From: Pseudomonadota bacterium
GTDB lineage: Bacteria > Desulfobacterota > Desulfobacteria > Desulfobacterales > JBDRRP01
Length of the DNA stretch: 64,000 nt
NCBI GenBank assembly: GCA_043825735.1
Contig: JBDRRP010000069.1
Span: 1 to 64,000, forward strand
Direction of reading: 5' to 3'
Shown: piece after piece, positions 37,001 through 46,000 of the stretch
How positions within the stretch are numbered: the first letter of the stretch is position 1
Layout of the letters: each line of letters opens with the position of its first letter
Position numbers: made by a program

Positions 37001-40000
37001 TACTCATATAGTCATTCCCCAGAAGAGCTCAAGGAATTATCGAATAAGATCTTTAACATCAACAACGGCGTAGATATTTTGAAATTTCTTAAGGAAATAT
37101 TAAGCAGCTGGACGATTAGACCCTTGTAGCCGAGTAGCATATGCTAATATTTTGTTAAAAACAAAAATTGAAAAACTCGTAAAAAAGTAATTTTCTAGCA
37201 AAAGCGCCAGGTACGCCAAAAAAATACTCTTCACATCAATGCGTTCGCTTTTCGATTGTTACGACTTTTCGAGAGATTCCAACTTTTTACAAGACCATCA
37301 AAATTGATGAATCCGTAAAAAGACGAAATTTCTGATTTTGTGATTCGTAACCTATTGAAATAATTATGTCCGAAATTTTTAAAAGTGCATTTTTCGGACT
37401 TTTTACGAGACTGTCAAAATTAAAAGATGAAAAAATACCTAAAATGATTTCGATAATCATTAGAAAATCCTAAACTTGGTTTCGAAATAGCAAAAAATGG
37501 TATTAGTTCTGTATAAGAATTTTTGTTGTTGATAGGGTGAACAGCCCATATCGCTGAGAGATACTTCCCCGTCTGCTTAGGCAGACATTTTTAAAGCAGA
37601 ATAGCTCGAAAGGCATTTTTCCCCAGATTAAATGATAAGCGACTCCATTTACCCCATAGTTAGTTGCGGGGGATATCGAACAAAGCAGCAAAAGACAAAA
37701 CCCACCGGTTTGGCAATCTGTATGGACTGCTGGACGAGAATTTTCTCAAGTGGAGCTTCTGGCAATTCAAGAAAGATGCCGTCCACAGGGTCGATCGGGT
37801 GAACTTTTTCGAGTACCAGGAGAATCTCGACGAAAACATCTCGGACCTTGTCGAACGTCTGAAACAGAAGCGCTATCGAGGCATGCTGGTCAGGAGGCAG
37901 TACATTCCCAAAAGAAATGGAAAATTGAGACCGCTGGGAATTCCCGCCACGAGTGACAAGGTACTGCAATTTGCAGTGGCCAAGATTTTGGAAGCCATTT
38001 ACGAAGAGGATTTTCTATATGTAAGCTACGGATACAGGCCGGAGACAGGTAGCAGGACGCTGTCCGGGACCCGACCCGAAAGCTGCAGTTAGGGAAATGT
38101 TCTTTCATAGTAAAGGCCGATATCAAAGCCTTCTTCGACAACATCGATCATAGTTGGATGATCCGTATGCTTGAAGAACGCCTTGATGATGGGGCGTTTC
38201 TGCGATTGATTCAAAAGTGGATGAAGGCGGGTATTTTGTATATCAGTGGCGATGTGACCCACCTGGCAACGGGAACGCCTCAAGGGGGTGTTGTATCACC
38301 GGTTTTGGCGAACGTATATCTTCATTACACATTGGATTTATAGTTCGAGAAAAGAATCCAACGGGTGTGTAATGGAGAAGCACTGATCATCCGATATGCG
38401 GATGATTTTGTATGTGCTTTTCAGTACCAACAGGATCCGGAGCTGTTTTATCAGCAGTTCAACGAACGTCTGGGTAAATTTGGATTGGAGGTCTCTCCTG
38501 AAAAGACGAGGATTTTGCCGTTCAGCAGGAGAACGCTGAATCTGAGCGGAACATTCGACTCTTTAGGATTTCAATTTCGCCGTTCACTCAGCCGAAATTT
38601 GAAACCAATTACCGTAATGCGAACATCGCGGAAGAAACACAGGGCCTCAATCGCCGCATTTACGGAATGGATCAAAACGAAACGCAACCGGAAGATTTCC
38701 GAACTGATGACAACCCTAAAGTCGAAGTGCCGTGGGTACTGGGACTAAAATGGTGTTATCGGTAATTACGGCAGTTTGAAGGCATTCTATTGCCAGACGG
38801 AACGCATACTGTTTAAATAGCATAAGCGGCGCAGCCAAAGATTAAGCTACAACTGGTCCGGATTCCAGGATCTCCTGAAGCAGTTTTTGATGCCGGCACC
38901 GAGTATAACTGAAAAATACCCGAGCAGGCAGCTGAAACTCTTTGTCTAACGCGTGTCAGTGCATAAGTGAGCAGATTCAAAGAGCCCGGTGCGGCAATAC
39001 CGCACGCCGGGATCTGCGAGGGGGCGGTTGTGTAACTGGCCTTTCTATCTTGATTCTTCATCTCCAACCAGGCATCTACTACTTGAACAGCTGGATAGGC
39101 ATGTTTATCGCTGGTATGTGCCTGTGAAGGTGGCGGCCGGCCATTCGTGTATTATGCTTGTTGAATTCGCTAATCTTTATAGTAAGCGCTAATCCAGTAA
39201 AGCTCTCGACTTTTGCTTTTTGATATGTTGACATCAAGTTTTTTTAGCCCAATTCCTGAAAGTATCGTTTCGACATCCTTAACCGAAAGATAAGTTACTT
39301 CCCTCTCCTCACCTGAGGACATCATGTCTTTACTTTTTTCTATGCCTTCTCCCATTTTGGTTCGGACATAGAGTATCCCCCCGGGCTTCAGAACTCTTTT
39401 CATTTCTTGCAAAGCAACTAGCATGTCTGAACGATCCATCTCGTGTATCAGACCGTGAGCCCATACACCGTCGAAATCAGCATCCGGCAGAGGCAACAGT
39501 CTAGCGTCAGCATTTATGAATTCAATCTCCGGTTGTTTCTCTCTGGCTATTTCGATAAGGCCTGCCGAAAGATCTACACCTACGATTGACGCTCCAAGAT
39601 CACGAAAGCTCACACAGTCCCGACCTGCGGAACATCCCACATCTAAAATTTTTGGCATAACTGGCAGGTATTCAATGAATTTCTGAATGTCATCCGGTGA
39701 ACCGGAATTTGCAGTCTTTTCTGCATATTTTTCTGCAATTTTGTCATACTTCTCGACAGCACGGCGGGTCCTATCGTCAAGATTGTCGTAAATGTTCATA
39801 ATGGGCTCCTTTCATTTAATTTTCGGTTGTCCAATCCACTGGCGTCATGCTCAGTTGCCAAGGCCACGGCGCATGACTTGTTTTAAACTGAACTAGTAAT
39901 GAGTAAAGGCCACCGAGGAAATCTGCTTTTGACGAGTTTAAACGTAGTCGCTCGAGTGCCTCTAAAGCAACAAGGAGGAGATGTTCTACAGTTTCGTGGA

Positions 40001-43000: not shown

Positions 43001-46000
43001 ATAACTGCGGCCCCAACTACCTTAAGTCCTTGAGATACCACGAAAGAGGTATATTCTGACAAGCTGGATCCGCTGTATGCTATATCATCAACAAACAGAC
43101 ACGATGTCCCTGATTCTGGACTAAAATCCCTATGGAACTTCTTCGGGCCAGCTTTTGAACGATAAACAATTGTGAAAGGGATACCGAGGCGTTTAGCTAC
43201 CGAAAATGCCAATATTGTTCCAACCATAGCAGGTCCGATAATAACTTCGATGCTGCACCAGCGTTCGGAGAAAAGACGAGTTAAACGCTCCCCCAATTCT
43301 TCTACGATAATTGGGTACCTAAGGAATGTCATTTTGCTGACGTATCCATTCCCGTGGTATCCATCTTGGAAAACAAAATGACCTTCATGCCAGCCTCCAG
43401 CTTGCTTGATAATGTCTTGCGTAGAGAGGGACAAGTCATCGGGAAAATCGTCACGCCGAAGGAGGTCTTGATTATGATTCAAAGAGTGGGCTCCGAAACC
43501 AAAGAAGTTGAACGAAAAATCGGAAAAAGCCGTCGGCCGGGCAATACAGGTGCTGCGAGATCACTGCTGAGCGATTTAAACGGACTATTTGACCGATGAA
43601 CATGTGACTAATTAACCGTCCGGGATTTGTGGCCCATGAGAAGAGGACTACACCAAAATCGCTGTGTGTCAAGAAAAGCTCTTGTCAATTGGGGGTCGGC
43701 GATAATATTTCGAGCGTGCTACCAACCTTGCGACACCTCGCCCGGTTGTGATTCAAGAGGCATATCAAAAAGAGTGGTTCCGTGGATCTATATTCTGCAA
43801 TACATGAATTCATGTGCGCGGGTTGCCGCGTTCTCATCACCATCGGTTGCCTCCAATCGCTGGTCTGAAAAATATTTTTTCGGCTGCTTGCCTATTGAGA
43901 CAAATGCAAGAAAACAGAGAATTGAAGGATGGGCTCCAAGTGTCGTTGTTGACAAAAATATACCTATACTGCTCAAATCGACTATATTTCAGAACCACCC
44001 ACCCATCTGTTGCTAATTGGCGCGTATAATGTAAAAAACATTTAACGCCATGTCAATAGACTAATTGATATTATTTTCAGCTTAAACAGTGAGATACGTG
44101 CCTGGCACACTTATCACAAGCATCTATTGCTTGCTTAACTAGTGTCCGTCCAGAAATTGGCCAAATCAGCCGTGGCCGAGCGTGGCCCGGCTGTAGGACT
44201 TTGCCCGCCTGGAAGAAAATCCCAGGCATGTGTCACTAAAATGTAGTCTGCGCAAAAAATGGCTCAGTTTAAAAACACCTATCCACACCGAGCAGTTAAA
44301 CGGGCGCCGCGATACCGGCTAGGCCAATTGCTTTCGTGCGATCGTAAGCAAGTTGGCCGAAACGATTGCCGACCAAACGTATCTCTTAAATCCATGCCAG
44401 CCTTTCCAAATGCACCGATCTAGGCCAAAACAACGCTTAAGCCAGGATATGCCTGACTCGATGCCAGCTCGAAAATTGCGCAGTCGCCTGAATACGTATG
44501 TGCTGCGGAACATATCGGTTTCTTTCAAGCCACGCTTTTTGGCAAAACAGGCATCATAGATCCCTGCTGTACCCTCACCGGATGGACACGGTGCCGATGC
44601 TGGAGGACGCCTATGCCTTGTGTGAGGCGTGCGATCTGTTCGCGCCCCTGAGCAAGTCTGTGAAGGTGGTCAAGGGCGGAGAGATGATCGTGCACTGAAA
44701 GGTGGGCAGGGTACACAGAAAACAGGGCACAGTAGGAATGAGTCAGAAGTTCCTTTATGACTGTGCTGATAACGGCCCCCATCAATCATAGGAAAAGGCG
44801 GTTCAACTGACCATTTTTAGGGAATTTAAAACGCAGGGAAGAAGATCCGTTGTTTTCAGCAAGGGACAGTCCTTTTTGGCGATAAAGCGGTATCGGCTAG
44901 ATATCAAAATATTTCTGGCAAAAATGATAATTGCGATACATTGCAGATAAGTTCAACGCAAATATATGCGGCTTGATCGCGGAATGTTATTGTTGAAATT
45001 AAGTGTTGTATCGCCAGAATCCTGTCGCTCTCACTTGACGTTGGAACCCTTCGGCGTGGCCCGTTACGCAACTTTCGAGCCCTTCGGCTGGTTTGTGAAA
45101 TCCTCCGGGATCAGGTTCTGGGTGAGCTGGAAAAGGCCTTCGAAAACGTGGCGTCGCAATTCGACCTCGACCATCAATGTCTGATTGGGTTCGAAATAAC
45201 GCTTAAGCGAGGCAAAAGTGCCACGGTGCTCCGCAACAGTATAACACGCTAAACCTTCCGATGGGCGTGCTGCAATCCGAAAGCCGAACTTGCCCGCCAA
45301 CTCGGGTTTGCCGAGCCAGTCGTTCATTACGTCGTAGTCGATGTAGTATGTGAGCCTGCCGGGGTTCAACAGGTTTCGCTGACGGTCGACGAAAAAGCCG
45401 GGTGGTAGATGGTTCGGATCATAAGAGGGCCCTGCGGTAAAAACTACGTCGTAGTCATTAAGCTCATTCCCACGGTCATCCGTTAATCGGATAACAAGCA
45501 TGCAATAGCGATTAGTTGTGAACTTACGTTCGAAAACGAAAAACTCCCGTACCGTCTCTTCATTCTCATCCACTTGGGTCTGCGCTGTGAGCTTGTCCAA
45601 CTCTCCTGTCAGGCGCTTGTAAGCCGTTTGGTTTGTCACTTCTAGGCAGCGGACAACCCACCGGACGGTTGGGTGTGTGCCGTTGTCATTGGCCTTCACG
45701 CTGCGGACGATGCCGATCGTCTCACCGGAATGGGAAAGGCCGGGGAGAACGCCAAATGCAGTTCTGGAGTTGCGCCTTTCCTTGCTCAGCCTTAACCCTC
45801 CGTCTGTTTGCACCAACCTGATGAGTCCGTAGTTCAAGTTTGCAGCGGCGACCCGTACAACTCCGTCTGAGCCCGCTTCGTCGGTATATGTATTGAGGTG
45901 GTCATACAATGAACGGTCAATCTTCTGCCCTGTGAGCACGAATGGATAGAGACCTGAAACCAGACAATCATAGCCAAGCCACTCGTGATTGAGTTCCCAA

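Follow-up and report, generated by a model that had tools for sequence, protein, structure and literature searches.

A SIR2-IF-2B fusion and an APH-fold kinase in a tRNA-Arg integrase island: a possible NAD+-depleting anti-phage module

The window analysed here, that is, the whole 64-kb stretch of DNA, harbours a mobile island whose left end is marked by a tRNA-Arg(ACG) gene and a tyrosine integrase gene. To the left of the island lie housekeeping genes (adenylosuccinate synthetase and deaminase), and mobile-element genes run on to 64 kb. Since the window contains no further att-like repeat of the 3' end of the tRNA, the island is bounded on one side only; its preliminary description as integrase-bounded thus holds for the tRNA-Arg, the integrase and the operon lying inside, but not for a second border. 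In addition to a four-gene operon, the island encodes plasmid/ICE-type products (ParB-methylase, primase, RadC, DUF932), a TPR-CHAT protein, a NucS-like match to PDC-S02 and a UvrD helicase. The features are as follows:

22847-22924, plus strand: tRNA-Arg(ACG), left end of the island (ARAGORN)
22944-24227, minus strand: tyrosine integrase (Pfam Phage_integrase, 1.4e-19)
42859..43482, minus strand: type I phosphoribosyltransferase (PRTase), OPRT-like, 207 aa, operon gene 1 (Pfam, NCBIfam)
40998..42806, minus strand: SIR2_2+IF-2B fusion, 602 aa, operon gene 2 (Pfam)
41997..42806, minus strand: SIR2_2 domain of the fusion, residues ~1-270, defence-type sirtuin-like NADase (Pfam, PADLOC, PDB)
41037..41909, minus strand: IF-2B-like domain of the fusion, residues ~300-590, MtnA/R15P-isomerase/eIF2B fold (Pfam, TIGR00524, PDB profile)
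39816..40964, minus strand: APH-fold small-molecule kinase-like protein, 382 aa, operon gene 3 (structure model)
39170..39799, minus strand: class I SAM-dependent methyltransferase, small-molecule type, 209 aa, last operon gene (Methyltransf_11)

The four genes, all on the minus strand, are separated by 52, 33 and 16 nt in order from the PRTase to the methyltransferase. Read from an upstream TTG, the kinase ORF spans 40985..39816 (minus strand) and encodes 389 aa; translation from the conserved MLEK start at 40964 gives a protein of 382 aa. The operon and its domain calls, as proposed previously, were borne out by the ORFs, Pfam, PADLOC and NCBIfam, and a renewed PADLOC search had the same outcome as before, with matches restricted to the SIR2 part (ThsA, PDC-S25, LmuA, Dsr2, Dsr1, PDC-S65) and the methyltransferase (mad2), so that three of the five modules of the operon match none of the PADLOC defence models. 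Neither a small antitoxin-like gene nor an HTH gene was found among the operon genes with Pfam and other family models, domains for secretion or delivery are absent, and no further biosynthetic genes were seen adjoining the operon (Pfam, neighbourhood).

The N-terminal part of the fusion matches Pfam SIR2_2 at residues 113-246 (E 1.2e-24) and resembles defence-type SIR2 proteins: it is recognised by the PADLOC model of ThsA (4.6e-22), and its sequence matches in the PDB are a ThsA-like protein (7uxt), DSR2 (2.9e-12) and KomC (8.7e-12). The TTNWD and KFHG motifs are kept and align to the TTNYD and K(L/V)HG motifs of the PDB matches. In a search of 5.8 billion clusters, 7 of the 27 matches, the window's own protein included, were SIR2+IF-2B fusions, the same number as counted earlier. 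N118, D120, K155 and G158 are invariant across these seven; H157 is replaced by Arg in one of them (P0007), and some of the fusions may thus lack NADase activity.

The C-terminal part of the fusion matches Pfam IF-2B at residues 319-571 (E 8.2e-21), a family that binds 5-substituted ribose-1-phosphates, and scores 50.4 bits against the NCBIfam model TIGR00524, for which the cutoff is 185.85. Profile alignment against the PDB gave S402, S404, H481, N495, T496 and K521 as the counterparts of C135, S137, D204, N214, K215 and K240 of the R15P isomerase PH0208, for which the residue roles were taken from PMC5789824. Ser402 and His481 thus stand in place of the Cys and Asp that are catalytic in MtnA/R15P isomerase, and both are invariant in all seven fusions; in the TIR fusions described below, the former position is occupied by A or S and the latter by H, Y or T. 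A canonical isomerase identity was rejected, both catalytic residues being replaced, and of the SIR2 fused to an MtnA-like isomerase, as originally described, the IF-2B fusion stands but the isomerase does not. Positions that contact the ligand in PH0208 are matched by S404, N495 and K521, and the C135S variant of the isomerase is inactive yet still holds its substrate (PMC5789824). However, K215, given there as a contact of both the 1-phosphate and the sugar, is Thr here (T496), and ribose-1-phosphate binding by this domain is therefore not assured.

The product of the third gene matches no Pfam, NCBIfam, PADLOC or PHROGs family. Its predicted structure (pLDDT 86.0, pTM 0.87) was matched by Foldseek with a probability of 1.00 to APH(2''), choline kinase and MtnK, although at TM-scores of only 0.40-0.49, and its Atlas feature matches are APH clusters (0.97). 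All of the 20 sequences compared share K19, E30, D181-x4-N186 and D246-F247, as well as a C-terminal Arg cluster (R298/R301/R305). The family comprises 56 representatives at E<=1e-3 among 1.8 billion proteins, a figure that was reproduced together with the invariant residues, the model scores and the Foldseek probability reported before. The label "MtnK-like", meanwhile, is too specific: in the VIA comparison generic APH-fold entries (3csv, the best, with Z 19.4; corramycin phosphotransferase, 18.3) score above MtnK (13.3), and no match to MtnK exists at the sequence level, hence only the assignment to an APH-fold small-molecule type is retained. Kinases that phosphorylate sugars at the anomeric position, MtnK and NahK among them, belong to the APH-type fold group; since other entries match the structure better than MtnK does, the idea of an anomeric kinase is an analogy. 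The gene is single-copy in its own genome, which is the only one of 401 genomes of the phylum with a real match, and a search of 185,579 species genomes with the two kinase-family queries (A3, A4) returned no relative. With so few members, the family does not permit a test of enrichment in defence islands.

A wider scan covered 20 long kinase-family members of at least 525 aa for Pfam heads. TIR+IF-2B was present in four, IF-2B only in two and TIR only in two, which confirms the preliminary claim that SIR2 and TIR are swapped on a common IF-2B and kinase module; the remainder carry NTP_transf_3 (two), HAD (one) or no Pfam head (nine). Two further TIR-bearing relatives of the kinase module are L002 and L003, and the kinase-TIR gene of the latter adjoins an integrase. 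The NTP_transf_3 or HAD fusions of distant kinase relatives resemble sugar-1-phosphate pathway arrangements. IF-2B is missing from the SIR2-only protein P0008 and from the TIR+kinase proteins P0055, P0069 and L003; it is thus optional, and no role of IF-2B can be essential to the core.

Pairs of SIR2-type proteins and kinases were also matched on contigs of equal size and source, on which gene order was not visible. Four were obtained, namely P0003/P0029 (14311, ENA), P0006/P0031 (4016, JGI), P0007/P0032 (30861, Logan) and P0008/P0039 (9826, JGI), and their members diverge in parallel from the proteins studied here, with SIR2-type/kinase identities of 71/71, 42/43, 35/41 and 40/34%, respectively. 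The SIR2 head and the kinase are thus putatively co-inherited on four other contigs, and the conserved core is an NADase head plus a kinase, the latter being the constant partner. A four-gene unit throughout was rejected, for in distant relatives only the SIR2 head and the kinase recur.

The PRTase and the methyltransferase were seen only on two contigs with proteins of 71-83% identity and not with the distant core pairs; both are lineage-specific accessories outside the core. The PRTase exceeds the cutoff of Pfam Pribosyltran (4.7e-11, 42.7 bits against 26.3) but not that of TIGR01367 pyrE_Therm (111.4 against 150.25 bits), it has no PADLOC or PHROGs match, and seven relatives, itself included, were found among the 5.8 billion clusters. 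The stretch 'LFVDDIAYSGSS', which we take to be PRPP-loop-like, is visible in its translation. The methyltransferase matches Methyltransf_11 (6.2e-23) and PADLOC mad2 (5.1e-20), its best NCBIfam matches being small-molecule methyltransferases, all far under the cutoffs; its relatives of 81-83% identity lie on contigs equal in size to those of SIR2-IF-2B relatives.

Tentatively, and at somewhat less than an even chance, we infer that the locus encodes a mobile-island NAD+-depleting anti-phage module of the abortive-infection type, with the kinase and a dead isomerase domain as partners, an architecture (SIR2/TIR, IF-2B and kinase) of which no description was found in literature searches. SIR2 and TIR heads both consume NAD+. 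The core would consist of such a head, SIR2 here and TIR elsewhere, converting NAD+ to nicotinamide and ADP-ribose, and of an ATP-dependent APH-fold small-molecule kinase, which may add a phosphate to a 5-substituted ribose; the free 1''-OH of ADP-ribose would be the most parsimonious acceptor, yielding an ADPR-1''-phosphate-like product. The IF-2B-like domain, having lost the Cys/Asp machinery and kept several ligand-contact positions, may bind a ribose-phosphate without isomerising it, and could either transmit the output of the kinase to the head, through allosteric coupling or oligomerisation, or sequester the product. The net effect would be a loss of NAD+ that phage ADPR-based salvage could not reverse and/or the formation of a toxic ADPR phosphate; PMC9503650 lists ADPr-1''P as a metabolite that is toxic. 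The model names no phage sensor. It is suggested by the defence-type SIR2 domain (ThsA, Dsr2 and LmuA in PADLOC; ThsA-like, DSR2 and KomC in the PDB), by the replacement of SIR2 by TIR before the same IF-2B and kinase module, by the parallel divergence of head and kinase, by the invariant motifs and APH-type fold of the latter and the sugar-1-phosphate-like fusions of its distant relatives, by the replaced catalytic residues and aligned ligand-contact positions of the IF-2B domain, and by the mobile and accessory context (tRNA-Arg/integrase island, single-copy kinase, one of 401 genomes, integrase beside the L003 gene). A precedent is aRES defence, whose product, ADPR-1''P, is not recyclable by the phage NARP1 pathway (bioRxiv 10.64898/2026.01.28.702374).

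The same constancy of the kinase beside varying heads would also fit a ligand-gated NADase with ThsA-like logic, in which the kinase makes a phospho-sugar signal from an infection-derived metabolite (for example methylthioribose or another 5-substituted ribose from phage SAM or nucleotide degradation) and the SIR2/TIR head is switched on once the dead IF-2B domain, as receptor, senses that signal. To our knowledge, every characterised NADase-head defence protein (ThsA, DSR1/2, Avs5, SPARSA/SPARTA) combines the head with a sensor and no product-processing enzyme, and an IF-2B domain without catalytic residues yet with ligand contacts parallels the SLOG domain of ThsA. We nevertheless regard this as unlikely, as SIR2-only and TIR+kinase forms lack IF-2B, the kinase is not specifically MtnK-like and nothing points to a particular trigger.

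Slightly more doubtful is a role without immunity, i.e. a small-molecule pathway of the mobile element (salvage of NAD, ribose or nucleotides, or else a biosynthetic route to a modified nucleotide or nucleoside), in which SIR2, kinase, PRTase and methyltransferase act sequentially at the anomeric carbon of ribose. All four enzymes are readable as ribose C1 chemistry plus small-molecule methylation, the core is co-inherited with the PRTase and the methyltransferase in close relatives, distant kinase relatives carry the metabolic-type NTP_transf_3 and HAD domains, and a defence-model match is missing for three modules. However, conflict systems are where SIR2_2 and TIR heads typically occur, the isomerase residues are missing from the IF-2B domain, the distant core pairs were seen without PRTase and methyltransferase, the distribution is extremely patchy and the setting an island, and no further biosynthetic genes adjoin the operon. 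An addiction or toxin-type island module, with a SIR2 NADase toxin checked by the other products and serving element stability or bacterial competition rather than phage defence, seems highly improbable, for although the island around the operon carries an integrase and plasmid/ICE-type genes, and toxin-antitoxin systems with NAD+-degrading toxins are known (PMC9503650), no antitoxin-like or HTH gene and no delivery domain accompany it, and single-polypeptide TIR+IF-2B+kinase forms do not fit a two-part layout.

As regards known systems, the pairing of an APH-fold kinase with an IF-2B-fold domain recalls MtnK-MtnA methionine salvage and the archaeal ribose-1,5-bisphosphate isomerase. The IF-2B-fold enzyme of these pathways takes a 5-substituted ribose-1-phosphate, whereas the domain found here is devoid of the catalytic Cys and Asp and falls far under the family cutoffs, and the kinase neither matches MtnK in sequence nor has it as its best structural match. 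Among solved structures, the SIR2 domain is matched best in sequence by DSR2 and Kongming KomC, but DSR2 possesses a ~750-aa C-terminal phage-protein sensor (the Dsr2 model gives 35 bits here against a cutoff of 1400), and KomC works with KomA and KomB, whose type of partner family was not seen among the operon genes with Pfam and PADLOC. In eIF2B alpha, too, the IF-2B fold lacks the catalytic Cys and is a proposed sugar-phosphate holder (PMC5789824), although this is a eukaryotic translation-factor subunit with neither an NADase nor a kinase partner. The RES-domain NAD+ phosphorolysis of aRES is alike in the proposed outcome, that is, the conversion of NAD+ to a phosphorylated ADPR that is not recyclable by phage NARP1; here, however, there is no RES domain, a hydrolase and an ATP-using kinase would both be needed, and the product is hypothetical. 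ThsA of type I Thoeris (SIR2-SLOG, acting with ThsB) likewise starts with a defence-type SIR2, its motifs at equivalent positions, and ends in a domain derived from an enzyme fold that handles nucleotides or ribose phosphates, apparently non-catalytic in both. That domain is SLOG in ThsA but IF-2B here, the partner is an APH-fold kinase, and the operon contains no TIR (ThsB) gene; in its relatives, TIR substitutes for SIR2 instead of standing alongside it.

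The operon consists of four minus-strand ORFs arranged head to tail, with intergenic gaps of 52, 33 and 16 nt:

43482..42859, minus strand, predicted type I phosphoribosyltransferase (PRTase), 207 aa, Pfam Pribosyltran 4.7e-11
42806..40998, minus strand, SIR2_2 and IF-2B fusion, 602 aa, SIR2_2 at residues 113-246 (1.2e-24) and IF-2B at residues 319-571 (8.2e-21)
40964..39816, minus strand, predicted kinase, 382 aa from the conserved MLEK start, no Pfam match
39799..39170, minus strand, methyltransferase, 209 aa, Methyltransf_11 6.2e-23

The kinase ORF is 389 aa long in the ORF list, where it starts at an upstream TTG; the length of 382 aa is counted from MLEK. 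PADLOC models matched only the SIR2 part (ThsA 4.6e-22, PDC-S25, LmuA, Dsr2, Dsr1, PDC-S65) and the methyltransferase (mad2). The four-gene operon and the domain calls of the preliminary description were thus reproduced, including the Pfam values and PADLOC matches quoted there. The promoter and terminator scan gave counts at the level of shuffled sequence.

The SIR2 head is of the defence type, its closest solved relatives by sequence being defence proteins, namely a ThsA-like protein (7uxt, 4.9e-13), DSR2 (2.9e-12), KomC (8.7e-12) and ThsA. The TTNWD (N118) and KFHG (H157) motifs align with TTNYD and K(L/V)HG of the ThsA-like, DSR2 and KomC chains, and N118 and H157 stand at the positions of the catalytic Asn and His of SIR2 NADases. 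Residues N118, D120, K155 and G158 are invariant in all seven SIR2-IF-2B fusions, while the His is replaced by Arg in P0007, the most distant of the seven. The model of the full-length fusion is of moderate quality (pLDDT 71.2, pTM 0.54).

The IF-2B fold of the second domain was recognized well above threshold (PF01008, 74.9 bits vs a cutoff of 22.4), and its profile matches 1t5o (1.6e-17), ribose-1,5-bisphosphate (R15P) isomerase (4.1e-16) and MtnA (1.2e-11) in the PDB. The domain falls far below the cutoffs of the MtnA-type NCBIfam models, equivalog and subfamily alike (50.4 vs 185.85 bits). S402 and H481 stand where B. subtilis MtnA (2yrf) and other MtnA-like chains have, respectively, the Cys of '..CN.G' and the Asp of 'GAD'; the catalytic residues of MtnA are Cys160 and Asp240. 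The domain-only profile, when aligned to the R15P isomerase of P. horikoshii (PH0208), pairs S402 with C135, S404 with S137, H481 with D204, N495 with N214, T496 with K215 and K521 with K240, and the best-scoring R15P isomerase entry is the C135S mutant. In the published account of R15P isomerase (PMC5789824), C135 and D204 are described as the catalytic residues, the C135S enzyme as inactive with the substrate still in the pocket, S137 and K240 as contacts of the 5-phosphate, and N214 and K215 as sugar contacts, K215 also contacting the 1-phosphate. Residues S402, Q403, S404, H481, N495, T496 and K521 are invariant in all seven fusions; the TIR fusions have A or S in place of the Cys and H, Y or T in place of the Asp.

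A canonical MtnA or R15P isomerase identity of this domain was rejected, as both catalytic residues are replaced, and the isomerase function assigned to it previously has to be abandoned for the same reason. We conclude from the sequence that the IF-2B domain is probably a ligand-binding or scaffolding derivative and not an MtnA-type isomerase; its K215 equivalent is lost (T496), so that its ligand may differ from that of R15P isomerase. A complex prediction for the IF-2B part (residues 285-602, SIR2-IF-2B alignment A1) and the kinase (alignment A2), run without controls, gave scores of 0.00 and 0.01, which speak neither for binding nor against it.

A search of 1.84 billion proteins gave 56 representatives of the kinase family at E<=1e-3, of which 29 reach <=1e-10 and 16 reach <=1e-30. 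Residues K19, E30, D181, N186, D246 and F247 are invariant in 20 out of 20 aligned kinases, as are D258, D259, R298, R301, R305 and Y309, and the structural model is confident (pLDDT 86.0, pTM 0.87), so that the representatives, motifs and model quality reported before were all recovered. The model displays a bilobal fold of the APH/choline-kinase type with Lys, Glu, D-x4-N and D-F(G)-type motifs. Foldseek returned APH(2''), choline/ethanolamine kinases and MtnK with a probability of 1.00 (TM 0.40-0.49), and in a structural search against representatives (VIA) the putative APH 3csv (Z 19.4) and the corramycin phosphotransferase 8agy (Z 18.3) scored higher than MtnK (Z 13.3 for 2olc, 12.8 for 2pyw) and N-acetylhexosamine 1-kinase (Z 12.9). 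At the sequence level no Pfam model matched, that of APH included, nor did any NCBIfam family, MtnK among them, and the kinase profile found nothing significant among PDB sequences (best E 0.031). The neighbours of the kinase in language-model feature space are APH clusters. Taken together, the invariant motifs, the APH-fold matches and these neighbours indicate that the protein is, as predicted from sequence and model, an intact, distant APH-fold small-molecule kinase. Of the earlier designation "MtnK-like kinase", the APH-type fold is retained, a specific likeness to MtnK is not brought out by the scores (Z 13.3 vs 19.4 for 3csv), and the term is best understood as an analogy, not a classification.

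The domain composition of the 20 kinase-family members of at least 525 aa supports the view, expressed in the preliminary description, that SIR2 and TIR are exchanged as heads on a shared IF-2B and kinase module. Four of them combine TIR, IF-2B and kinase (P0044, P0048, P0050, P0051), two IF-2B and kinase (P0053, P0057) and two TIR and kinase, the TIR being N-terminal in P0055 and C-terminal in P0069; NTP_transf_3 is present in two, HAD in one, and the remaining nine are without a Pfam head. No extra domain is present in five shorter members. A subgroup of ∼610-630 aa (P0056, P0058, P0060, P0071 and the metagenome ORF L004:824-2515) shares a conserved N-terminal domain of ∼330 aa, which matches neither Pfam nor SIR2/IF-2B (hhalign probability 0.5) and perhaps represents a further head type beside SIR2 and TIR. 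At the locus L002:384-2738 the TIR, IF-2B and kinase parts, 58-64% identical to P0048, lie in separate frame-shifted ORFs, which points to decay of this copy or to a faulty assembly; an AIR-carboxylase/PurE-like gene is convergent to it. The metagenome locus L003 encodes a 690-aa kinase-TIR protein adjoining an integrase, and the upstream ORF on L001 has no similarity to the SIR2-IF-2B protein.

Co-occurrence of heads and kinases was deduced from the equal length and source of the longest contig of each protein:

Contigs shared by relatives of the operon proteins (identity to the window's proteins)
14311 nt, ENA: SIR2 P0003, 71%; kinase P0029, 71%; PRTase P0087, 73%; methyltransferase P0093, 83%
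36244 nt, JGI/Logan: SIR2 P0004, 71%; PRTase P0088, 76%; methyltransferase P0094, 81%
4016 nt, JGI: SIR2 P0006, 42%; kinase P0031, 43%; PRTase and methyltransferase, none seen
30861 nt, Logan: SIR2 P0007, 35%; kinase P0032, 41%; PRTase and methyltransferase, none seen
9826 nt, JGI: SIR2-only P0008, 40%; kinase P0039, 34%; PRTase and methyltransferase, none seen

SIR2 and TIR are interchanged, and head and kinase are co-inherited. The 30861-, 4016- and 9826-nt contigs carry no PRTase or methyltransferase relative among the matches listed (all 7 for the PRTase, the best 120 of 166 for the methyltransferase), bearing in mind that such searches miss distant relatives more easily and that few further genes would fit on 4016 nt. 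The two accessory enzymes were found only in the close clade (71-83% identity) and would thus not be part of the core. Since head and kinase recur while the accessory enzymes are confined to that clade, the recurrent core appears to be the NADase head and the kinase, as judged indirectly, from contig matching and not from gene order. The PRTase itself is predicted to be of type I (PF00156, 42.7 bits vs a cutoff of 26.3); its nearest NCBIfam model, the Thermus-type OPRT TIGR01367, scores 111.4 against a cutoff of 150.25.

The operon is located among mobile and accessory genes which extend from a tyrosine integrase to the end of the window, whereas housekeeping genes, adenylosuccinate synthetase and a deaminase, lie to the left of the tRNA-Arg:

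22847-22924, tRNA-Arg (tRNA scan), left end of the island
22944-24227, tyrosine integrase, directly after the tRNA-Arg
25529-27304, minus strand, fusion of ParB_N, HTH_ParB and N6_N4 DNA methylase, 591 aa, typical of mobile elements
27370-31224, plus strand, TPR-CHAT (caspase-like protease) protein, 1284 aa
31248-32099, minus strand, zf-HC2 anti-sigma-like/DUF4384 protein, adjoining the TPR-CHAT gene
36311-37129, plus strand, Cof-type HAD-IIB sugar-phosphate phosphatase, in the stretch of lowest G+C (0.37)
37664-38092 and 38365-38748, plus strand, RVT_1 fragments, profile positions 1-47 and 148-193 (Pfam)
47630-48097, minus strand, SLOG/nucleoside 2-deoxyribosyltransferase-like protein, 155 aa, weak matches (Pfam 0.0036 and 0.0069, ShosA 0.0042, phrog_289 2e-6)
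49563-50285, plus strand, NucS_C-like nuclease, PADLOC candidate PDC-S02 (3.6e-15)
51669-53516, minus strand, UvrD helicase, GajB models 7.7e-82
53758-57778, plus strand, second low-G+C block (0.37-0.38) with IrrE/Peptidase_M78, BpsA_C-like (polyamine synthase C-terminal), AAA_17 and several family-less ORFs

Genes for DUF932, a PD-(D/E)XK nuclease, a DnaG-like primase and RadC are also found to the right of the operon, and the stretch at 36-45 kb has a G+C of 0.37-0.48, down from ∼0.52-0.59. The window contains no second copy of the tRNA-Arg 3' end, so the right end of the island is not seen, and no convincing flanking direct repeat (att). Hence, of the integrase-bounded island proposed earlier, the left end, formed by tRNA-Arg and integrase, is confirmed, but the right boundary is not seen within the window. 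A 519-aa family-less ORF overlapping the ParB-methylase fusion on the opposite strand is probably spurious. The TPR-CHAT and zf-HC2/DUF4384 pair may represent another conflict system, and the two RVT_1 ORFs just downstream of the operon look like remnants of a broken RT gene. A tie between the Cof-type phosphatase and the operon is conceivable; the distant kinase-family member P0079 is a HAD fusion. The SLOG/2-deoxyribosyltransferase-like gene shares the strand of the operon and is located 4 kb upstream, and the GajB-like helicase has no GajA-like neighbour according to Pfam and PADLOC.

The head-kinase modules are mobile and very patchy in distribution. The kinase gene is present in a single copy in its 6.8-Mb genome, which is the only one among 401 genomes of the phylum with a real match (three others gave ∼1e-3 over 35-43 residues). 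Neither of two kinase-family queries (A3, eight sequences; A4, TIR fusions) detected relatives in 185,579 species genomes; A3 found four loci in metagenome contigs. Viral contigs yielded no kinase relatives, only SIR2-only loci (L005-L010) with no kinase homologue nearby. The operon was traced to one sequencing run, apparently that of the source sample, a groundwater metagenome, and to no RNA run. This rarity, with seven SIR2-IF-2B fusions and 56 kinase-family representatives, limits the ecological weight of the system.

NAD+ depletion is central to bacterial immunity, and phages rebuild NAD+ from ADP-ribose and nicotinamide. We infer that the operon is an NAD+-depleting defence module in which the kinase activity would be coupled to the NADase. 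As kinase substrate, ADP-ribose would be the most economical choice. Like methylthioribose and ribose 5-phosphate, it is a 5-substituted ribose whose anomeric hydroxyl is free, and an anionic substrate would be in keeping with the invariant Arg residues clustered in the kinase. Some APH-fold kinases phosphorylate anomeric hydroxyls, and IF-2B-fold proteins bind 5-substituted ribose-1-phosphates. Hydrolase and kinase could then reach in two steps the ADPR-1''-phosphate-type end product that aRES reaches in one, while the dead isomerase domain would hold this product, perhaps to signal back to the head or just to sequester it. In aRES defence, as described in a preprint (bioRxiv 10.64898/2026.01.28.702374), NAD+ is converted directly into ADPR-1''-phosphate, and the phage NAD+ reconstitution pathway NARP1 cannot recycle the product; ADPr-1''P is described as a toxic metabolite (PMC9503650). 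The weak points of the NADase-kinase defence reading are that it names no infection sensor, that IF-2B is dispensable in some relatives, that one fusion is without the SIR2 His and that the K215 equivalent is lost.

By analogy with ThsA, the kinase might instead convert an infection-derived metabolite into a ligand read by the IF-2B domain; this has an architectural precedent and fits nearly as well as the preferred reading, yet we consider it rather unlikely. A slightly smaller chance is given to a small-molecule pathway unrelated to immunity, which agrees poorly with the SIR2_2 and TIR heads, with an isomerase domain that is dead and with distant relatives having lost both PRTase and methyltransferase. 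An addiction or toxin module, for which the operon offers no antitoxin-like partner, is highly improbable.

Within the NADase-kinase defence reading, a bolder version, itself quite improbable, holds that each gene closes one phage route of NAD+ rebuilding: SIR2 would split NAD+, the kinase would yield an ADPR-1''-phosphate-type product, gripped by the dead isomerase domain and blocking NARP1-type recycling, and the methyltransferase and PRTase would remove nicotinamide and/or PRPP and block the Nampt-type NARP2. The single TIR, IF-2B and kinase proteins would be the minimal version of such a salvage-proof cassette, which, if real, would be an ATP-driven two-enzyme analogue of aRES and the first case in which a domain of the eIF2B/MtnA fold serves immunity. 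If the defence reading is true, NADase systems would gain a new class of partners, with an active small-molecule kinase and, in disabled form, the ribose-1-phosphate isomerase fold coupled to SIR2/TIR heads. This would provide either a new sensing of phospho-sugar ligands or a means of making NAD+ loss irreversible, and the eIF2B/MtnA fold would acquire a role in prokaryotic immunity.

Among the known systems, Thoeris ThsA has the positions of the SIR2 catalytic motifs in common with the operon (aligned TTNWD/KFHG; PADLOC ThsA 4.6e-22), but the C-terminal domain here is IF-2B instead of SLOG or Macro/TM, and no ThsB-type TIR gene is found among the ORFs scanned at 19.6-64 kb of the window. Dsr2 is a protein of ∼1000-1200 aa with SIR2 and a large sensor, whereas here only residues 12-208 match the DSR2 model NF041819 (35.3 bits vs a cutoff of 1400). 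With MtnA and R15P isomerase the IF-2B fold is shared but not the catalytic Cys and Asp, and with aRES the likeness lies only in the proposed outcome, no operon protein having a RES domain (Pfam). A combination of SIR2 or TIR with IF-2B-like and APH-like modules was not described in the full-text literature searched, most subscription journals being outside it. The defence papers listed there mention neither methylthioribose nor MtnA, IF-2B or eIF2B-like domains, and the main text of a 2025 preprint on TIR-based systems contains no kinase, isomerase, phosphotransferase, eIF or methyltransferase terms. Since each of Thoeris, DSR, aRES and MtnK/MtnA fails at least one tested defining feature, the operon is not a member of any of them and, as judged against PADLOC 2.0, it is best regarded as putative NADase-effector immunity with a new partner module.
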